Of a stretch of 32,000 bases of DNA, positions 4,833 to 30,301 are shown one piece after another. The notes beneath the pieces were generated by a model that saw nothing but the letters and a program-made list of their open reading frames with translations, was not told the origin of the DNA and searched no databases. The number at the start of each line of letters is the position of its first letter. The first letter of the stretch is position 1. The translations under genes were made by a program, and so were the position numbers. This DNA is from Candidatus Methylomirabilis oxygeniifera (lineage in GTDB: Bacteria > Methylomirabilota > Methylomirabilia > Methylomirabilales > Methylomirabilaceae): contig FP565575.1 in NCBI GenBank assembly GCA_000091165.1, forward strand, positions 2,700,001 through 2,732,000. The letters run 5' to 3'.

Positions 4833-6162
4833 CTTTACCCTCCGTCCCCTGGAGATCGGGCCGCTTTCCATCTATCTCGCTGCGGTCGGCCAGCGGCAGA
4901 CTGACGATGACCGTCGTGCCCTTTCCAATCCCTCTGCTTCGCACCTCGATGCTGCCTTTATGTTGCTCGACAATGCTCTGACTAATCGCGAGGCCAAGGC
5001 CTGTCCCCTTGCCCACCTCCTTGGTAGTAAAGAACGGATCAAAGACCCTCGAAAGGTTGTCCGGCGAGATCCCGCTGCCCGTGTCGGACACGAACACATC
5101 GAGCCATCTTTGTTCACCCGCCGGATCGACGGCCTCTTGACGGTGATAGGCGTTGATGCGAATCTCCCCGCCGCTCTCGATGGCATCGAGCGCATTTGTC
5201 AGAAGGTTCAGAAAGACCTGCTGAAGCATCTGGGCATCAGCCTGAACCACACTCCTGTCCGGGAATGGAGCAACGACAATCCGCTGATTTTCGAGGCTGG
5301 CCTGCCGCTCCACAAACGAGACCGCGTGTAACGCCACATCATACAGATCCACCAAACTGAAGGTCGGCTCGCGTTGGCGCGCGAAATCGAGCAGACGACG
5401 GACAATAGTTGCTGCACGAGCCACTTCATCTTGGATCATCGTGACATATTGTCTCCACTCTGCGAGGGCGGCAAGGTCACCGATCTCCGCTGTCTCGATA
5501 CGCCGCTGAAGGGCCTCGGCGAAACCGGCTACGGAGGAGAGGGGGTTGTTCAGTTCATGGGCCAAGCCGGCGGCCAATCGACCAAGCGAGGCGAGCTTCT
5601 CCTGTCGGACCAGCAACTGCTGCGATTGTTTCAACTCGTCATACGAGCGCCGCAGTTCCTCATACAGGCTGGCGTTCTCGAGGGCAATGGCGGCCTGAGT
5701 GGCCAACGTGATGGCCAGGGTCTCATCCTCTTCACTGAACTCGGCGGCGCCCTGCTTCTCCGTCACGTAGAGGTTGCCACGGACCTTCCCTTTTGATACG
5801 ACGGGTACGCCCAGGAAGGAGTGCATCACAGGATGATGAGAAGGGAACCCGTGCGCGCGCGGGTCTGTCATCAGGTTCTTCAGGCGGAGGGGCTTTCCCT
5901 CGCGCACCAGCACACCGAGAATCCCCTTTCCGACCGGCGGCGGGCCGATAGCCTGTCTGGCAGTCTCGTCAATGCCCGCCGTGATGAACCGGCTGAGGCC
6001 GCCCTTGCCATCCAGGACGCCAAGAGCGGCATATTTGGCGCTCATCAACTTACAGGCCATGTTGACGATACGCTGCAAGACCTCTTCAAGAGAGAGCTTC
6101 GCGGTGAGGATCATGCCTGCCTTCACAAGCATCCGAAGCTGGCTCATCTCTCTCCTGTCCAT
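4816..6162 (-). CDS. soluble sensor histidine kinase with GAF domain
   Basis: GAF-like segment ([17 protein letters not shown]...GVLDGKGG...), H-box [17 protein letters not shown]-box LLTNALDA, G1 DTGSGI, G2 GTGLGLAIS, and no TM segment. The start is uncertain. The track ORF extends to GTG 6282, which would overlap the divergent Nudix start. ATG 6162 has GGGGAGGAAGAGG immediately upstream. Confidence 0.8.
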
Positions 6163-6190
6163 CCTCTTCCTCCCCTCGTAAAAGTCGGCG

Positions 6191-6219
6191 TTGACAGCAG
6201 CCTGCAGCGCCTCTATCCT
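6191..6219 (+). promoter_or_regulatory. candidate sigma70 promoter for the Nudix gene (TTGACA-17 nt-TATCCT)
   Basis: TTGACA at 6191-6196, a 17-nt spacer, TATCCT at 6214-6219, about 35 nt upstream of ATG 6254. Sequence match only. Confidence 0.35.
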
Positions 6220-6253
6220 CTCCTCGGCAGGCTCAATCGTTGCGGGAGGAGAC

Positions 6254-6835
6254 ATGAAACTCATCGAACAAGTCATCAGCACGCAGGTCGTCTACGCTGG
6301 GGCGTATCTTTCAACCGAGCAACAGACGGTCATCCTGCCGAATGGCCGACAGGCGGTCCGCGACATCGTTCGTCCTCCGGACGCCGTTGCGATTGTGCCG
6401 ATCGACGACGATGGTCGAATCTACCTGGTTCGGCAGTATCGACCGGCCATCCGGCGAGCCATCTACGAGATTCCGGCCGGCATCATCGATCCAGGCGAAC
6501 GCCCGACTGCCACGGCTCGCCGGGAGTGCGAAGAAGAGATTGGACTTCGCCCGCGCCGGCTGCTCACGTTGTGTACCTTCTATTCCGCGGTCGGCTTCTC
6601 CACCGGGTCTATCCGGCTTTTTCTGGCTCAAGGACTCATCGCCGGCCGGGACCGTCGCCACGACGCCACCGAGTTCCTGCAGGTCCATGCGGTTCCGTTC
6701 GAACAGGCCTACCAGTGGGTCTTATCACACAAGATCGTGGACGCCAAGAGCATCGTTGGTATTCTCTGGGCCAGGCAACGGCTTGATCTCCCACCGCTCC
6801 GCGATCGGCGACAGCCGACTCGACGGCAGTCTTAG
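6254..6835 (+). CDS. Nudix hydrolase, ADP-ribose pyrophosphatase-like
   Basis: Nudix box GIIDPGERPTATARRECEEEIGL (GX5EX7REUXEEXGU). The N-terminus MKLIEQVISTQVVYAGAYL resembles NudF/ADPRase. ATG 6254 is preceded by GGGAGGAG. The track start at 6191 is unsupported. Confidence 0.8.
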   Translation: MKLIEQVISTQVVYAGAYLSTEQQTVILPNGRQAVRDIVRPPDAVAIVPIDDDGRIYLVRQYRPAIRRAIYEIPAGIIDPGERPTATARRECEEEIGLRPRRLLTLCTFYSAVGFSTGSIRLFLAQGLIAGRDRRHDATEFLQVHAVPFEQAYQWVLSHKIVDAKSIVGILWARQRLDLPPLRDRRQPTRRQS

Positions 6836-11614: not shown

Positions 11615-11727
11615 CGCGTTCCACACACCAACACGTCCACGTAATACATTGTTTTTTATGCTATCGCATTGTCGCAATCGGCGCAACCCAATTTATGCCT
11701 CTGGCTGGTGTGTACTCCGAATACTAC

Positions 11728-11768
11728 TTGTATTTCGCATGGTTGTATGCTAGATAAAATCGTATAAT
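11728..11768 (+). promoter_or_regulatory. candidate mreB promoter region
   Basis: TTGTAT (11728-11733), a 17-nt spacer, then TAGATA (11751-11756). A perfect TATAAT also lies at 11763-11768. The region is AT-rich and sits 55-95 nt upstream of mreB. Sequence match only. Confidence 0.35.
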
Positions 11769-11820
11769 CCGGTCCGTATTCTCCCGCGCTGGGGGCGTCG
11801 CAAGTCAGCATGAGGAGTGA

Positions 11821-12852
<1,032 letters not shown>

Positions 12853-17376: not shown

Positions 17377-20202
17377 ATGAACTATAAAGAGACACTGAAC
17401 CTGCCAAGTACCGCCTTTCCGATGAAGGCGGATCTCCCGGTACTCGAGCCGTCCATCCTGACGCGGTGGGACGCCTCAGGTCTCTACGATCGGCTCCGCG
17501 AGGTCCGGGCTGATCGACAGGTCTGGATCCTCCACGACGGTCCACCCTATGCGAATGGCCATATTCATATCGGTCATGCGCTCAATAAGATCCTGAAGGA
17601 CTTCGTGGTCAAGTCCAAATCGATGTTTGGCTATAACGCGACCTACGTCCCGGGATGGGATTGCCACGGGCTTCCGATCGAACACCAGGTCGATAAAAAC
17701 CTGGGCAGCAAAAAGACGGAGGTGTCGCTGGTCGAAAAGCGACAACTCTGCCGCGAGTACGCCGCCAGGTTCGTCGACATTCAGCGGGCGGAGTTCAGAC
17801 GCCTCGGAGTGCTCGGTAACTGGTCGGTCCCGTATCTCACCATGGATTACATGTACGAGGCGACGATTGTCCGTGAACTGGGAAAGTTATTCGGAACGGG
17901 GGCAGCGTACAAAGGCAAGAAGCCGGTCCACTGGTGCGCCTCGTGTCGGACGGCCCTGGCCGAGGCCGAGGTCGAGTATGCCGATCATGCATCGCCGTCC
18001 GTCTACGTCAAGTTTCCGCTTACCCAGGATGTCGAGGAGCGGTTGCCGATGCTCCAGGGAAGACGGGCGTATGTTGTGATCTGGACGACGACACCATGGA
18101 CGCTGCCGGCGAATCTGGCGATCGCCGTACATCCGGACGCATCGTACGCGATCGTCGAATCGGCCGATGAGTGCTTCATCATCGCCAAAGATCGGCTGGA
18201 AGCGACGCTTGCTGCGGCAGGGGTGAAGGCGAGCCGGGTTGTCGAAGAAGTGCCGGGCCGTACGCTGGAAGGGCTGACGGCCAGACACCCATGGATCGAA
18301 CGATCCTCGAAGGTGGTGTTGGCCGACTATGTCACGATGGACCAGGGGACAGGGTGCGTACATACGGCGCCGGGGCACGGCGTCGAAGATTATGAGACCG
18401 GTCTCCGATACGGCCTCGATATCTATAACCCTGTCGATGCCGCCGGACGGTTCGTCGCGGATCTGCCGCTTGTCGGCGGCCTGAGCGTCTGGAAGGCCAA
18501 CAGCGCGATCATTGCCGAGCTTCAGCGCCGAGGTCTGCTGCTGTCGGAGGTACAAATCGAACACTCCTATCCCCATTGCTGGCGGTGCAAACACCCGACG
18601 ATCTTCCGGGCGACGGAGCAGTGGTTCGTCTCTATGGACGCAGCCGTCCTCCCTGATGAAGGCGGCGGACAGACCGGACTGCGCGCCAAGGCCTTGGCGG
18701 AGATCAAGCAGGTCCGGTGGATTCCCTCCTGGGGCGAGGATAGGATCAGCAATATGATCGCGTATCGCTCCGACTGGTGCATTTCGCGGCAACGGGCCTG
18801 GGGGGTCCCGATCGTCGCCTTCTACTGCGCGCATTGCGGCCATATCCTGGCGGACCGGCGGATTGCCGAACATGTTGCAACCATGATCGAACGGACGGGG
18901 GCCGACCTCTGGTATACCGACACCGCAGCGGATCTGCTTCCGCCCGGGACCGCGTGTCCCAACTGCAAGGGGACCGACTTCGAAAAGGAACGCGATATCC
19001 TGGATGTCTGGTTCGATTCCGGCGTGAGCCACGCGGCCGTCCTCGAGGTCAGATCCGACCAGCAGTGGCCCGCCGACATGTACCTTGAAGGGAGCGATCA
19101 GCATCGGGGGTGGTTCCATAGCTCGCTGCTCACCGCAGTCGGGACCCGGGGACGCGCGCCCTATCGGGCGGTCCTGACCCACGGCTTCGTGGTGGACGGC
19201 GAAGGCAAGAAGATGTCCAAGTCGCTCGGCAACGTCGTCGCCCCCCAGGAGGTGATTGACCGGTACGGCGCCGAGATTCTTCGTCTCTGGGTGGCGGCTG
19301 AGGACTACCGCGACGACATCCGAATCTCCGAGGAGATCTTGAAGCGGCTGGCGGAAGGGTATCGGCGCATCCGGAACACCTGTCGCTATCTGCTCGGCTG
19401 CCTGTCCGACTTCCAGCCTGCTCGCGATGCGCTGCCGCTCAACGAACTCGATGAAATTGACCGGTTCATCCTGCACCGGCTGGGGCGGCTCGTCGAACGA
19501 TTGCGCCAGGCCTATGAGACGTACGAGTTTCACCTCCTCTACCATGGCCTGCATAACTTCTGCGCCGTAGACCTGTCGGCCATGTATCTGGATATCCTGA
19601 AGGACCGCGTCTACACCTCCGCCCCCCGCTCTCGCGCCCGGCGCGCGGCCCAAACCTCGATGTATCAGATCCTTGACGCGCTCGTCAGACTGATGGCGCC
19701 GGTCCTCTCCTTTACCGCCGATGAGGTGTGGCAGGTGATGCCTAAGCAGGGCGGCGAGGCGGAAAGCGTGCATCTCGCGGAATTCCCGACCGTCCGGTCC
19801 GATCTGCCGGACGAGGCCCTTGAAGCCCGCTGGGACGTCTTGCTGTCGGTTCGGGACGAGGTGCTGAAAGCCCTGGAGGCCGCTCGTAAAGCCAAGCTGA
19901 TCGGGACATCGCTGGAGGCCCACGTCGACCTCCTCGTCGAGCCTGCCTTGCTGCCGATCCTCACCCGGTACCAAGTCGATCTTCCGACGCTGTTCATCGT
20001 CTCGGCTGTCAGCGTAGGGAGTCTCGCCGAGACGGACGCCGCCGGAAAAAGGGTTGAGGTACGGGTCGAGCGAGCAGCAGGGCAGAAATGCGCCCGCTGT
20101 TGGACCTACGGTGAAAGCGTGGGCCGGTCCATCCCACATCCGGATGTCTGTGCCCGCTGTGCCGGCGTCCTTGAAGAGATAGGGTATGGGAACAGGGTAT
20201 AG
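17377..20202 (+). CDS. ileS: isoleucine--tRNA ligase (type 1, with C-terminal zinc-binding CxxC pairs)
   Basis: HIGH motif PPYANGHIHIGHALNK, KMSKS motif present, editing-domain size as expected, and C-terminal CARCW...CARCAGVL. Confidence 0.97.
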   Translation: MNYKETLNLPSTAFPMKADLPVLEPSILTRWDASGLYDRLREVRADRQVWILHDGPPYANGHIHIGHALNKILKDFVVKSKSMFGYNATYVPGWDCHGLPIEHQVDKNLGSKKTEVSLVEKRQLCREYAARFVDIQRAEFRRLGVLGNWSVPYLTMDYMYEATIVRELGKLFGTGAAYKGKKPVHWCASCRTALAEAEVEYADHASPSVYVKFPLTQDVEERLPMLQGRRAYVVIWTTTPWTLPANLAIAVHPDASYAIVESADECFIIAKDRLEATLAAAGVKASRVVEEVPGRTLEGLTARHPWIERSSKVVLADYVTMDQGTGCVHTAPGHGVEDYETGLRYGLDIYNPVDAAGRFVADLPLVGGLSVWKANSAIIAELQRRGLLLSEVQIEHSYPHCWRCKHPTIFRATEQWFVSMDAAVLPDEGGGQTGLRAKALAEIKQVRWIPSWGEDRISNMIAYRSDWCISRQRAWGVPIVAFYCAHCGHILADRRIAEHVATMIERTGADLWYTDTAADLLPPGTACPNCKGTDFEKERDILDVWFDSGVSHAAVLEVRSDQQWPADMYLEGSDQHRGWFHSSLLTAVGTRGRAPYRAVLTHGFVVDGEGKKMSKSLGNVVAPQEVIDRYGAEILRLWVAAEDYRDDIRISEEILKRLAEGYRRIRNTCRYLLGCLSDFQPARDALPLNELDEIDRFILHRLGRLVERLRQAYETYEFHLLYHGLHNFCAVDLSAMYLDILKDRVYTSAPRSRARRAAQTSMYQILDALVRLMAPVLSFTADEVWQVMPKQGGEAESVHLAEFPTVRSDLPDEALEARWDVLLSVRDEVLKALEAARKAKLIGTSLEAHVDLLVEPALLPILTRYQVDLPTLFIVSAVSVGSLAETDAAGKRVEVRVERAAGQKCARCWTYGESVGRSIPHPDVCARCAGVLEEIGYGNRV

Positions 20203-28154: not shown

Positions 28155-28619
28155 ATGGCAGATGAGCGCGAGACTCATCAGAGATTCATTCGGGCAGCCT
28201 TTGAGCAGGCTCGGAAATCATACAATGAGGGTGGACTTCCGATTGGCGCCGTCATGGTAGAGAACAGCACAGTTATCGCTGTTGGTCATAACCGTCGCGT
28301 TCAAGACGGCGATCCAACCGCGCACGGGGAGATGGACTGCCTTCGGCAGGCTGGTCGGCGCCCTCGCTATGACGGCATTACGCTTTATACGACGCTGAGT
28401 CCTTGCATGATGTGCTCAGGCACCGTGCTCCAGTTTGGGATCAAGCGAGTGGTCATTGGCGAAAAGCAAAACTTCCCAGGCAATGTCGAATTGTTGCGCA
28501 ATCACGGTGTTGATGTGATTGTTCTTGATGATCCTGAGTGTATTTCGCTGATGCAGCGATTCATGCGCGAACGTCCGGATCTGTGGGACGAGGATATTGC
28601 GGGGCGAACAAACGTTTGA
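28155..28619 (+). CDS. cytosine deaminase of the CDA-fold, yeast FCY1 type (zinc deaminase)
   Basis: EGGLPIGAV, GHNRRVQDGDPTAHGEMDCL (HxE zinc site) and TLYTTLSPCMMCSGTV (PCxxC). The C-terminal FMRERPDLWDEDI parallels the FCY1 tail FIDERPQDWFEDI. GAGGGAG RBS. Confidence 0.85.
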   Translation: MADERETHQRFIRAAFEQARKSYNEGGLPIGAVMVENSTVIAVGHNRRVQDGDPTAHGEMDCLRQAGRRPRYDGITLYTTLSPCMMCSGTVLQFGIKRVVIGEKQNFPGNVELLRNHGVDVIVLDDPECISLMQRFMRERPDLWDEDIAGRTNV

Positions 28620-28920: not shown

Positions 28921-29121
28921 ATGACAACTGTCGAGTCGATTGAGCGCGCTATCGAGCAGCTTTCCCCCGACGAACTCGTCAAGTTGCGACGCTGGTTCTT
29001 GGAGTACGATGCCACCGCTTGGGATGCTCAGATCGAGGCAGATGCTGCTGCCGGAAAATTCGATGCGTTAGCTAAAGAGGCTTTAGCTGAGTATCACAGC
29101 GGTAAGGCGCGCGAGATTTGA
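28921..29121 (+). CDS. antitoxin-like small helical protein (partner of downstream ParE/RelE-like toxin)
   Basis: 66 aa, MTTVESIERAIEQLSPDELVKLRRWFLEYDATAWDAQIEADAAAGKFDAL. GAGGAGG lies 5 nt upstream. Its stop overlaps the next start. Confidence 0.65.
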   Translation: MTTVESIERAIEQLSPDELVKLRRWFLEYDATAWDAQIEADAAAGKFDALAKEALAEYHSGKAREI

Positions 29122-29378
29122 GGCATTTCACGGCGAGTCAATTCTGGCGCTGTTTCGATGCTCTGCCAACCGCCATCCAGGATCTCGCCCGACGCAACTA
29201 CGCTCTTCTCAAGCAGAATCCGACGCATCCATCCCTACAATTCAAATCCGTGTGCGGCGGACGCTTCCGTAGCGTTCGAATCGGTAATCATTACCGTGCC
29301 CTTGGGCTGCCAGTCCCAGAGGGAGTGCAGTGGTTCTGGGTCGGCCCGCACGCCGAGTACGACAAGTTCTTTAGCTAA
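29118..29378 (+). CDS. RelE/ParE-superfamily-like toxin (putative)
   Basis: 86 aa, with NPTHPSLQFKSV...RSVRIGNHYRALG...WFWVGPHAEYDKF, a pattern I associate with small ParE/RelE-like toxins. The TTG start overlaps the antitoxin stop (TTGA). Confidence 0.6.
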   Translation: MRHFTASQFWRCFDALPTAIQDLARRNYALLKQNPTHPSLQFKSVCGGRFRSVRIGNHYRALGLPVPEGVQWFWVGPHAEYDKFFS

Positions 29379-29536: not shown

Positions 29537-29653
29537 TTATCCCAGCCAGATGAGCAGCTTGACAATGTACTTCATTGCGATCATGGACGCTAGAAACATG
29601 ACCGCCCCTAAAACTAAATTCACATTGATGTTTCGGTGCTTTTCCGGCTCCAT
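29537..29653 (-). CDS. 38-aa single-TM small protein (candidate)
   Basis: Minus-strand ATG 29653 is preceded by GAGGAAGAGG. The translation is MEPEKHRNINVNLVLGAVMFLASMIAMKYIVKLLIWLG*. It lies 46 nt downstream of the glutaredoxin-like ORF and is too short for the ORF track. Confidence 0.35.
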   Translation of the reverse strand: MEPEKHRNINVNLVLGAVMFLASMIAMKYIVKLLIWLG

Positions 29654-29699
29654 ACCTCTTCCTCACTGAGACCGACGACCGTCGGCGCCTCTAGACTGC

Positions 29700-29915
29700 T
29701 CAGGTTCCGCCAAATCCGACGGTGACTTTGCCCTTCTCGACAATAACCGGGACATCACGTGAGCCTTTCGATAACTCCAACATCTGTGCGAGCGCCTTCG
29801 GGTCCTGCTTGACATTGAGGTAGGTGAACGGGACCTTCCGCCTGGCATAGTCCTCACGGGCTGCCGAGGTATAGGGTCAGGTATCCTTCCCGTAGATGAC
29901 GACCGGTTCGTCCAT
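29700..29915 (-). CDS. glutaredoxin-like small thioredoxin-fold protein with in-frame TGA at the redox-Cys position (selenocysteine candidate)
   Basis: ATG 29915 has GGAGG 6 nt upstream. The translation is MDEPVVIYGKDT[TGA 29877-29879]PYTSAAREDYARRKVPFTYLNVKQDPKALAQMLELSKGSRDVPVIVEKGKVTVGFGGT*. It shows the Grx/NrdH/YruB-like pattern: beta1, CPYC-position motif, cis-Pro VPV, GKV.VGFGG. Confidence 0.65.
29841..29869 (-). promoter_or_regulatory. candidate bacterial SECIS hairpin downstream of the TGA
   Basis: The mRNA is CCU-C-GGCA-GCC-CGUGA-GG-A-C-UA-UGCC-AGG. About 10 bp are hand-folded, starting 8 nt after the UGA, with an apical loop CGUGA containing GU. This is hand-folded only. Confidence 0.3.
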
Positions 29916-29956
29916 CTGCCTCCTCCAATCTTTCGGGTCCGTCTGATTCCAGCGCG

Positions 29957-30301
29957 TCAGACCCGCGTCGTAAATCGTTCGGCCTCTGTGGTCAACCGCT
30001 CGTAGGCAAGCTTGATGTCGCGGATCTGCGGGTACAGCTCCTGGATCTTCTCGTGGGGGAGCGGGATGATCCGGCTCAGTTCAGTCAGCCGCTCCCCAAC
30101 CAGCTTGGCCCGTCGAAGGATATCGAGCTTTTTATCGGCCGGCGGGCTCAGCGCTGCCCCCTCCAGGAGTACAAGCATCCCGTCCTCATCTTGAGCCCGG
30201 CACAGCTCGTCCAACTGCTGCGCCTGGGTCTCATTGAGACCGCTTTCCCGCAGGGCATTCAACGCCTTCATCCGGTCGATTCGATAGCGGATGTCGAGCA
30301 T
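29957..30301 (-). CDS. hypothetical helical protein (114 aa), first gene of the module
   Basis: AAGGAG lies 6 nt upstream of ATG 30301. The sequence is coding-like (MLDIRYRIDRMKALNALRESGLNETQAQQLDELCRAQDEDG...). I recognise no domain. Confidence 0.55.
   Translation of the reverse strand: MLDIRYRIDRMKALNALRESGLNETQAQQLDELCRAQDEDGMLVLLEGAALSPPADKKLDILRRAKLVGERLTELSRIIPLPHEKIQELYPQIRDIKLAYERLTTEAERFTTRV

Follow-up and report, generated by a model that had tools for sequence, protein, structure and literature searches.

The 32-kb window (the whole stretch of 32,000 nt analysed here) carries on its minus strand a genuine member of a curated and published family, NCBIfam NF041114 ('UXX-star selenoprotein family 1'), in an organism that is on record as using selenocysteine (Sec). 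We consider it highly likely that this gene encodes a 74-residue glutaredoxin-fold selenoprotein with two Sec residues; each of its two in-frame UGA codons is probably served by a hairpin of its own, and in the mechanism proposed here Sec72, near the C-terminus, would partner the active-site residue 13. The gene model that is most likely correct has 74 amino acids and two Sec and ends in U-A-V followed by a stop. Its elements are as follows.

Positions 29919-29926, minus strand: Shine-Dalgarno-like GGAGGAGG, 3 nt 5' of the ATG, read from the sequence.
Positions 29913-29915, minus strand: start codon ATG, read from the sequence.
Positions 29691-29915, minus strand: full coding sequence, 74 codons plus TAG, based on the sequence and its translation, NF041114 and Pfam PF00462.
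Positions 29877-29879, minus strand: putative first Sec codon, TGA, residue 13, at the position of the N-terminal active-site Cys (UPYT here, CPYT in most homologues).
Positions 29700-29702, minus strand: putative second Sec codon, TGA, residue 72, the family-defining U of U-x-x-stop.
Positions 29691-29699, minus strand: tail GCA (Ala73), GTC (Val74) and stop TAG, the TAG itself at 29691-29693.

Translation of the minus strand with both TGAs taken as Sec gives MDEPVVIYGKDT-U-PYTSAAREDYARRKVPFTYLNVKQDPKALAQMLELSKGSRDVPVIVEKGKVTVGFGGT-U-AV, while the conceptual translation with TGAs taken as stops falls into MDEPVVIYGKDT and PYTSAAREDYARRKVPFTYLNVKQDPKALAQMLELSKGSRDVPVIVEKGKVTVGFGGT, each followed by a stop, that is, into 12 and 58 codons. 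As the program-made list of open reading frames contains none of at least 40 aa in this frame, standard gene callers would miss the gene. The first-pass annotation of this DNA had found it by reading through the first TGA, and its coordinates and read-through translation match the minus strand exactly. It was also right that a TGA splits the frame into 12 and 58 codons, but it missed the second Sec codon, taking the TGA at 29700-29702 as the stop of a 71-residue protein, whereas the frame continues GCA GTC TAG and the family profile covers this tail.

The gene is found, identical and with both TGAs, in three independent assemblies (our loci L163, L164 and L165), the same sequence being present in NCBI GCA_009026205.1, ENA ERZ24907703 and Logan contigs. 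The ENA and Logan gene calls omit it. In GCA_009026205.1 (L163 10387-10602, equivalent to window positions 29700-29915) a 71-aa protein is called that runs through the first TGA and ends at the second, a call that is only possible if UGA 13 is read through; the product as deposited is probably three residues short, without the final U-A-V. Standard gene callers thus skip or shorten this gene, and where a 71-aa protein is public, the three residues left off include the family-defining Sec.

Membership in NF041114 was assessed with U replaced by C. The 71-aa form scores 116.8 bits (cutoff 72) and the 74-aa form 124.7 bits, a gain of 7.9 bits, and the profile is covered from end to end (positions 1-70 of 70) only when the U-A-V tail is included. 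The same U-to-C product matches the Pfam Glutaredoxin model PF00462 at 44.5 bits (cutoff 22.9). The locus thus combines what distinguishes the family, namely a full-length score above cutoff, a C-terminal U-x-x-stop and a glutaredoxin fold with a U/C-x-x-T motif, and it further shares with NF041114 the two Sec and the hairpin after the terminal UGA. It differs from most retrieved members in having Sec13 instead of Cys13 and in its U-A-V tail, present in 5 of 148 loci, versus the typical U-G-V. These two profile matches bear out the first-pass proposal of a glutaredoxin-fold selenoprotein whose N-terminal active-site Cys is replaced by Sec (U-P-Y-T), and the Uxx-star profile that it had suggested searching is the one matched above the cutoff of 72. 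Its assignment to the Uxx-star family therefore stands (NF041114, 124.7 bits), but its account of the name does not, since this denotes a C-terminal U-x-x-stop and not an active-site motif of the type U-x-x-S/T/A/R. The 'star' is the stop codon, from which it follows that the 'stop' TGA at 29700-29702 is to be read as the second Sec codon.

Several other redoxin families resemble the window protein. Of the two redoxin types to which the first-pass annotation had likened it, the YruB-like profile TIGR02196 scores 44.4 bits against a cutoff of 88.55, and the NrdH profile TIGR02194 scores 27.6 bits against 85.75; as both values are far under their cutoffs, the window protein is a member of neither family. 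NrdH and YruB-like proteins have in common with it a thioredoxin-fold redoxin of roughly 70-80 aa with a VP(V/I) cis-Pro and a GFGG-type turn, but they carry CxxC and no Sec. Assignment as a classical dithiol glutaredoxin (CPYC) was likewise rejected, there being no resolving Cys at +3, where the window protein has Thr16, a Thr that the family alignments show without exception. UXX-star families 2 and 3 and the HUGP/GUXX-star fusion (NF041211, NF047338 and NF045501; Haft & Tolstoy 2025 as cited in PMC13188914) share the glutaredoxin-like domain and a C-terminal U-x-x-stop, and the fusion has an additional N-terminal domain that the window protein lacks. Their matches are weaker, at 57-69 bits against cutoffs of 100, 97 and 325, and membership in these three families is excluded by these scores. 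The selenoprotein glutaredoxin of Clostridium oremlandii (Kim et al. 2011, cited in PMC13188914) likewise has Sec as the N-terminal nucleophile of a glutaredoxin fold, but it keeps the resolving Cys within its motif (UxxC) and has no C-terminal Sec, whereas the window protein has UxxT and its presumed partner residue on the tail.

NF041114 corresponds to 'Distant Grx-like protein 1' in Table 1 of Zhang et al. 2026 (PMC13188914), which cites Zhang & Gladyshev 2008, and this review gives the family as 'UxxT, 2 Sec'; the main text of Zhang & Gladyshev 2008 does not explicitly name the UXX-star family 1 subfamily. In the literature on UXX-star family 1 we found no experimental proof of Sec insertion. 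For the host, the survey of Peng et al. 2016 places Ca. M. oxyfera among the Sec-utilizing organisms (SelD/SelA/SelB), with six known selenoproteins. A tRNA scan and family profiles detected no SelA, SelB or SelD gene and no tRNA-Sec within the 32-kb window, and Rfam returned no SECIS or other relevant family, either for the whole window at gathering thresholds or for positions 29600-29950 under permissive settings. With the family, its two-Sec form and the Sec trait of the host all on record, this type of locus is already known, and the current understanding of selenoproteins is unchanged by it.

The AlphaFold model of a homologue with both TGAs (P0165) has a mean pLDDT of 81.5. It shows a glutaredoxin core of the order beta-alpha-beta-alpha-beta-beta, lacks a helix past the GFGG turn and ends in a four-residue tail of low confidence. 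Its top structural matches in Foldseek are glutaredoxins, cGrx1 and NrdH (1h75), and the best PDB sequence match is cGrx1, the Cys paralogue of the C. oremlandii glutaredoxin (7c10/7c12; E = 2e-6). In the mechanism that we propose, both in-frame UGAs would be decoded as Sec by SelB and tRNA-Sec, each by way of its own hairpin about 20 nt downstream. Residue 13 would lie at the N-terminus of helix 1, the glutaredoxin nucleophile site, with the second Cys of CPYC replaced by Thr, and the fold would end directly past the conserved GFGG turn to leave a short flexible tail, T-U-A-V. In yeast Grx5 and E. coli Grx3, for example, the active-site Cys can bond with a semi-conserved Cys located just past the GG turn. 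By extension we infer that Sec72 would be the partner of residue 13, either resolving it or serving as its shuttle, the proximity of the two residues being assumed from general glutaredoxin knowledge. Where residue 13 is Cys, as it commonly is, the bond between residues 13 and 72 would then be a selenenylsulfide; where it is Sec, as in the window gene, the bond would be a diselenide. The mobile tail may pass reducing equivalents on to an external substrate. The tail of mammalian thioredoxin reductase, to which the shuttling of electrons out of a buried redox centre is attributed, provides an analogy only, with no homology. There too the chain is extended by a flexible C-terminus (-G-C-U-G) with Sec in the penultimate region, and gene finders take the UGA of this Sec for a stop, but the enzyme is a eukaryotic flavoenzyme with a eukaryotic-type 3'-UTR SECIS and adjacent Cys and Sec residues.

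The main functional rival to a redox shuttle accepts the same gene with the same two Sec but has them bind a soft metal or metalloid (Hg, As, Cu, Se) as a bis-selenolate ligand instead of serving as a catalytic redox couple. The review of Zhang et al. 2026 (PMC13188914) raises metal binding, or interaction with substrates not yet known, as possible roles of Sec in the UXX-star family, and ties many recently described bacterial selenoproteins to metal(loid) handling; a CxxT motif without the classical resolving Cys would be consistent with such a role. Against it, both the fold and the place that residue 13 takes in it are typical of thiol-disulfide oxidoreductases, the 139 neighbouring genes at some 70 loci bear no metal-resistance or transporter signature, and the neighbours within the window are housekeeping genes and an apparent toxin-antitoxin pair. 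We consequently regard a metal-binding function as rather unlikely and prefer the redox shuttle.

A second alternative concerns the terminal UGA. If residue 13 were the only Sec, the TGA at 29700-29702 would be a true stop, the product would be 71 aa long and the hairpin downstream would be unrelated to recoding. The 71-aa call in GCA_009026205.1, which ends at this very TGA, is in keeping with such a product, as are nearly all database entries of the family, which end in GFGGT. Sec insertion in bacteria is generally inefficient, which makes some termination at UGA 72 likely, and two UGAs in one short mRNA imply a low yield; a 71-aa product of termination at this codon may therefore also be present. 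A plain stop, however, would leave the next 9 nt free to vary. To follow these positions we used 160 related loci from genomes and metagenomes, retrieved with a search pattern that contained Cys, so that all 160 are Cys13 by construction and say nothing about the frequency of Sec13. The TGA directly follows GG[T/S] in 150 of the 151 loci that could be parsed, and in all 148 evaluable loci it is followed by exactly two sense codons and then the true stop, the two residues being GV in 103 loci, EV in 35 and AV in 5. Codon 74 specifies Val or Ile in 139 of 139 unique sequences: Val in 136 (GTC in 74, GTG in 33, GTT in 23 and GTA in 6) and Ile in 3. Retention of Val74 through four synonymous codons indicates selection at the amino-acid level past the UGA.

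A hairpin follows this tail, predicted from the fold of the RNA.

Positions 29668-29691, minus strand: SECIS 2, a predicted hairpin GCCGAC-GGUC-GUCGGU with its core at 29671-29686, a 6-bp stem and outer pairs GAG/CUC.

The element spans the true stop and the 3' untranslated region, and its GGUC loop, at 29677-29680, occupies nt 23-26 after UGA 72; the SECIS of E. coli fdhF likewise has a GGUC loop, with G23 and U24 when numbering begins at the U of UGA. Of the 139 unique family sequences, 137 (98.6%) have a hairpin with 5 or more base pairs and a loop that begins 19-26 nt past the terminal UGA, versus 25% of shuffles. These 137 hairpins comprise 47 distinct upper-stem arms, yet 135 have a G in the loop, GGUC being the commonest loop as well as that of the window. 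Between the window and its syntenic relative L002 a G-C pair of the SECIS 2 stem has changed to A-U by compensatory substitution. A T-run after the hairpin occurs in just 3 of 137 cases, which argues that these structures are not intrinsic terminators. Taken together with the 7.9 bits gained as the NF041114 profile spans the last three positions, and with the two Sec that the review counts for the family (PMC13188914), this conservation makes a true stop at codon 72 very unlikely, and the 74-residue protein with a second Sec is the model that we retain.

The true stop after U-x-V is itself TGA in 60 of the 139 unique family sequences (for example L166 2708-2719, L167, L170 and L172). In these genes one UGA would code for Sec while another, 9 nt away, would be the stop, which would constitute a natural test of the SECIS distance rule.

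At the internal UGA, the family alternates between Sec and Cys. Among 218 homologues the active site is CPYT in 178 and 'W'PYT or 'W'PHT in 32, and in all 32 a second 'W' comes after GGT. In JGI protein entries W stands in for TGA, and the sequence breaks off at the second one (…GFGGTW; P0011, P0019, P0026, P0049, P0121-P0135 and others), and the DNA of eight 'W' homologues has TGA at both positions. It was by means of this artefact of the JGI gene calls that the Sec13 genes were recovered, and it offers a handy route to double-Sec members in protein databases. Both TGA columns are present in at least 32 homologue clusters. Cys homologues have TGC or TGT at column 13 in 149 loci, L002 (88% identical and syntenic) among them, so that the question raised in the first-pass annotation, whether Cys or TGA occupies this column in orthologs, is answered by both. 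Nine independent Sec13 genes, that of the window included, have 58-86% mutual identity and are interspersed with Cys13 genes, the nearest relatives of three of them being Cys13 (88% identity between the window and L002, 92% between L169 and L006, and 82-83% between L168 and Cys13 genes), a distribution that points to several independent Sec/Cys switches. Two protein entries, P0136 and P0137, have Val or Leu at the catalytic column (VPYT, LPYT), which may be a real substitution or a gene-call artefact.

A candidate element for the internal UGA lies inside the coding sequence.

Positions 29844-29865, minus strand: candidate SECIS 1, from the minimum free energy (MFE) fold, with outer pairs extending to 29832-29878.

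With the U of UGA as nt 1, the predicted fold has a stem of nt 15-18 with nt 33-36 (GGCA/UGCC), a mini-helix C21C22/G27G28 and an apical loop G23 U24 G25 A26, all within the codons for A-A-R-E-D-Y. Single-sequence folding gave no signal, the MFE of both post-UGA regions being no better than that of shuffles (z = -0.7 for SECIS 1), after which comparative tests were used. The string GCCCGUG at nt 19-25 after the UGA is invariant in 9 of 9 independent Sec13 genes. Ala19 is encoded by GCC in all nine, versus 46 of 129 Cys13 genes (36%; p = 1.7e-4), and Arg20 by CGT in all nine, versus 19 of 118 Cys13 genes (16%; p = 3.9e-7); in the Cys13 gene of L002 the GCC-CGU string has decayed to GCT-CGG. Within the proposed stem 79.6% of cells are paired, versus 17-54% when the stem is slid along the alignment, and its covariation score is reached by 35 of 500 shuffles. 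Given this modest pair support, we grade SECIS 1 as likely, not proven. The Cys13 loci L006, L011 and L015, which are closest to the Sec13 gene L169, retain the exact SECIS-like GCCCGTGAGGAT/A at nt 19-30 after codon 13. The retained string suggests a very recent switch, from Sec to Cys or from Cys to Sec, with the RNA element still present.

This pattern also bears on whether the first TGA is simply a nonsense mutation (TGC/TGT to TGA) or a sequencing error in a Cys-type gene, for which it can be said that the nearest relative, L002, has TGT, one base change apart. The explanation is essentially refuted: the identical TGA recurs in three independent assemblies, one contig of which is reported in 9 samples, TGA stands in the same column of at least 32 homologue clusters from several sublineages, and the Sec13-specific constraint on synonymous sites lies directly 3' of it. 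The gene has no further disruptions, and its 12 N-terminal codons and ribosome-binding site are intact and conserved. Of the three warning signs named in the first-pass annotation, a genome without selABCD is countered by the survey of Peng et al. 2016, and the other two are absent, the codons upstream of the TGA encoding a conserved beta-1 strand (V-x-I-[YF]-G-[KQ]-D) and the window copy, beside an intact Cys relative with TGT in L002, bearing no disruption of another kind. Nor do we give appreciable weight to a non-Sec reading of UGA, by near-cognate insertion of Trp or Cys or by a reassigned code, since the W that JGI calls show at both positions of double-TGA homologues stems from the gene call (the fetched DNA is TGA, and the locus does not translate to the JGI protein), ordinary window genes such as the deaminase at 28155-28619 end in TGA and UGA is thus normally a stop there, homologues have Cys in the TGA columns (the classic Sec/Cys signature), and the host has the Sec trait (Peng et al. 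2016).

The 139 flanking genes include no universal partner, synteny being lineage-specific only; among them are genes for 4HBT thioesterases (17), LolA-like proteins (10), APH proteins (10) and metallo-beta-lactamases (9). In the Sec13 loci L001 and L166 a CarboxypepD_reg-like gene and a Ser/Thr kinase gene lie upstream and an OPT oligopeptide transporter gene downstream, and a third Sec13 locus, L172, has the CarboxypepD_reg-like gene in common with them. L168 and L170 have ThyX (Thy1) and peptide deformylase genes upstream, and in the window a cytidine/dCMP-type deaminase gene is found about 1 kb from the selenoprotein gene; a link to nucleotide metabolism is conceivable but unsupported.

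Closer to the gene, a 114-aa ORF (29957-30301, minus strand) lies 41 nt upstream on the same strand and is conserved and syntenic in L002. It is without a Pfam or NCBIfam match, is present on 19 public contigs, including GCA_009026205.1, the ENA contig 'Methylomirabilis_oxyfera_contig_6' and a Logan contig reported in 9 samples, and probably belongs to the transcription unit of the selenoprotein. On the other side, a hydrophobic ORF of 38 aa (MEPEKHRNINVNLVLGAVMFLASMIAMKYIVKLLIWLG; 29537-29653, minus strand) begins 37 nt past the selenoprotein TAG, with GAGGAAGAGG upstream, and again has no match in Pfam or NCBIfam. We rejected it as a partner of the family, since a similar peptide follows the gene in L002 alone and is thus confined to the Methylomirabilis lineage; it may share a transcript with the redoxin gene and encode a small membrane protein particular to this lineage. 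Farther downstream, on the plus strand, a ParE-like toxin ORF (29118-29378) overlaps a 66-aa upstream ORF (28921-29121) by 4 nt, and the interval 28921-29378 looks like a toxin-antitoxin pair. The corresponding interval of L002 is taken up by two other genes, one DUF433 and one Mrr_cat restriction-like, which marks it as a variable islet between the redoxin and deaminase genes.

Elsewhere in the window, mechanical read-through yielded 194 candidates, which were rejected, those located in gaps or extending real genes being R/S/P-rich off-frame sequences; a methyltransferase at 574-1434 is not a member of a selenoprotein family. Long ORFs run antisense to mreB, ileS and a histidine-kinase gene (11656-12747, minus strand; 17887-20139, minus strand; and 5821-6786, plus strand). 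Those tested match no family, and these ORFs are typical antisense artefacts of GC-rich DNA, not genes.

For the family, these comparisons yield a rule: Sec13 members have an invariant GCC-CGU-G at nt 19-25 after the UGA, and all members have a hairpin about 20 nt past the terminal UGA. M. oxyfera makes its own O2 from NO. A Sec13-Sec72 intramolecular diselenide or bis-selenolate, as a natural couple in a free-living bacterium that is toggled repeatedly via a SECIS set within the A-A-R-E-D codons, might serve a redox role of very low potential or high resistance to oxidation in this organism, a suggestion that we make tentatively and hold to be somewhat doubtful. In either state of residue 13, Cys or Sec joined with Sec72 on a shortened glutaredoxin fold would be a tractable system in which to ask what a selenenylsulfide or diselenide couple offers a bacterium.
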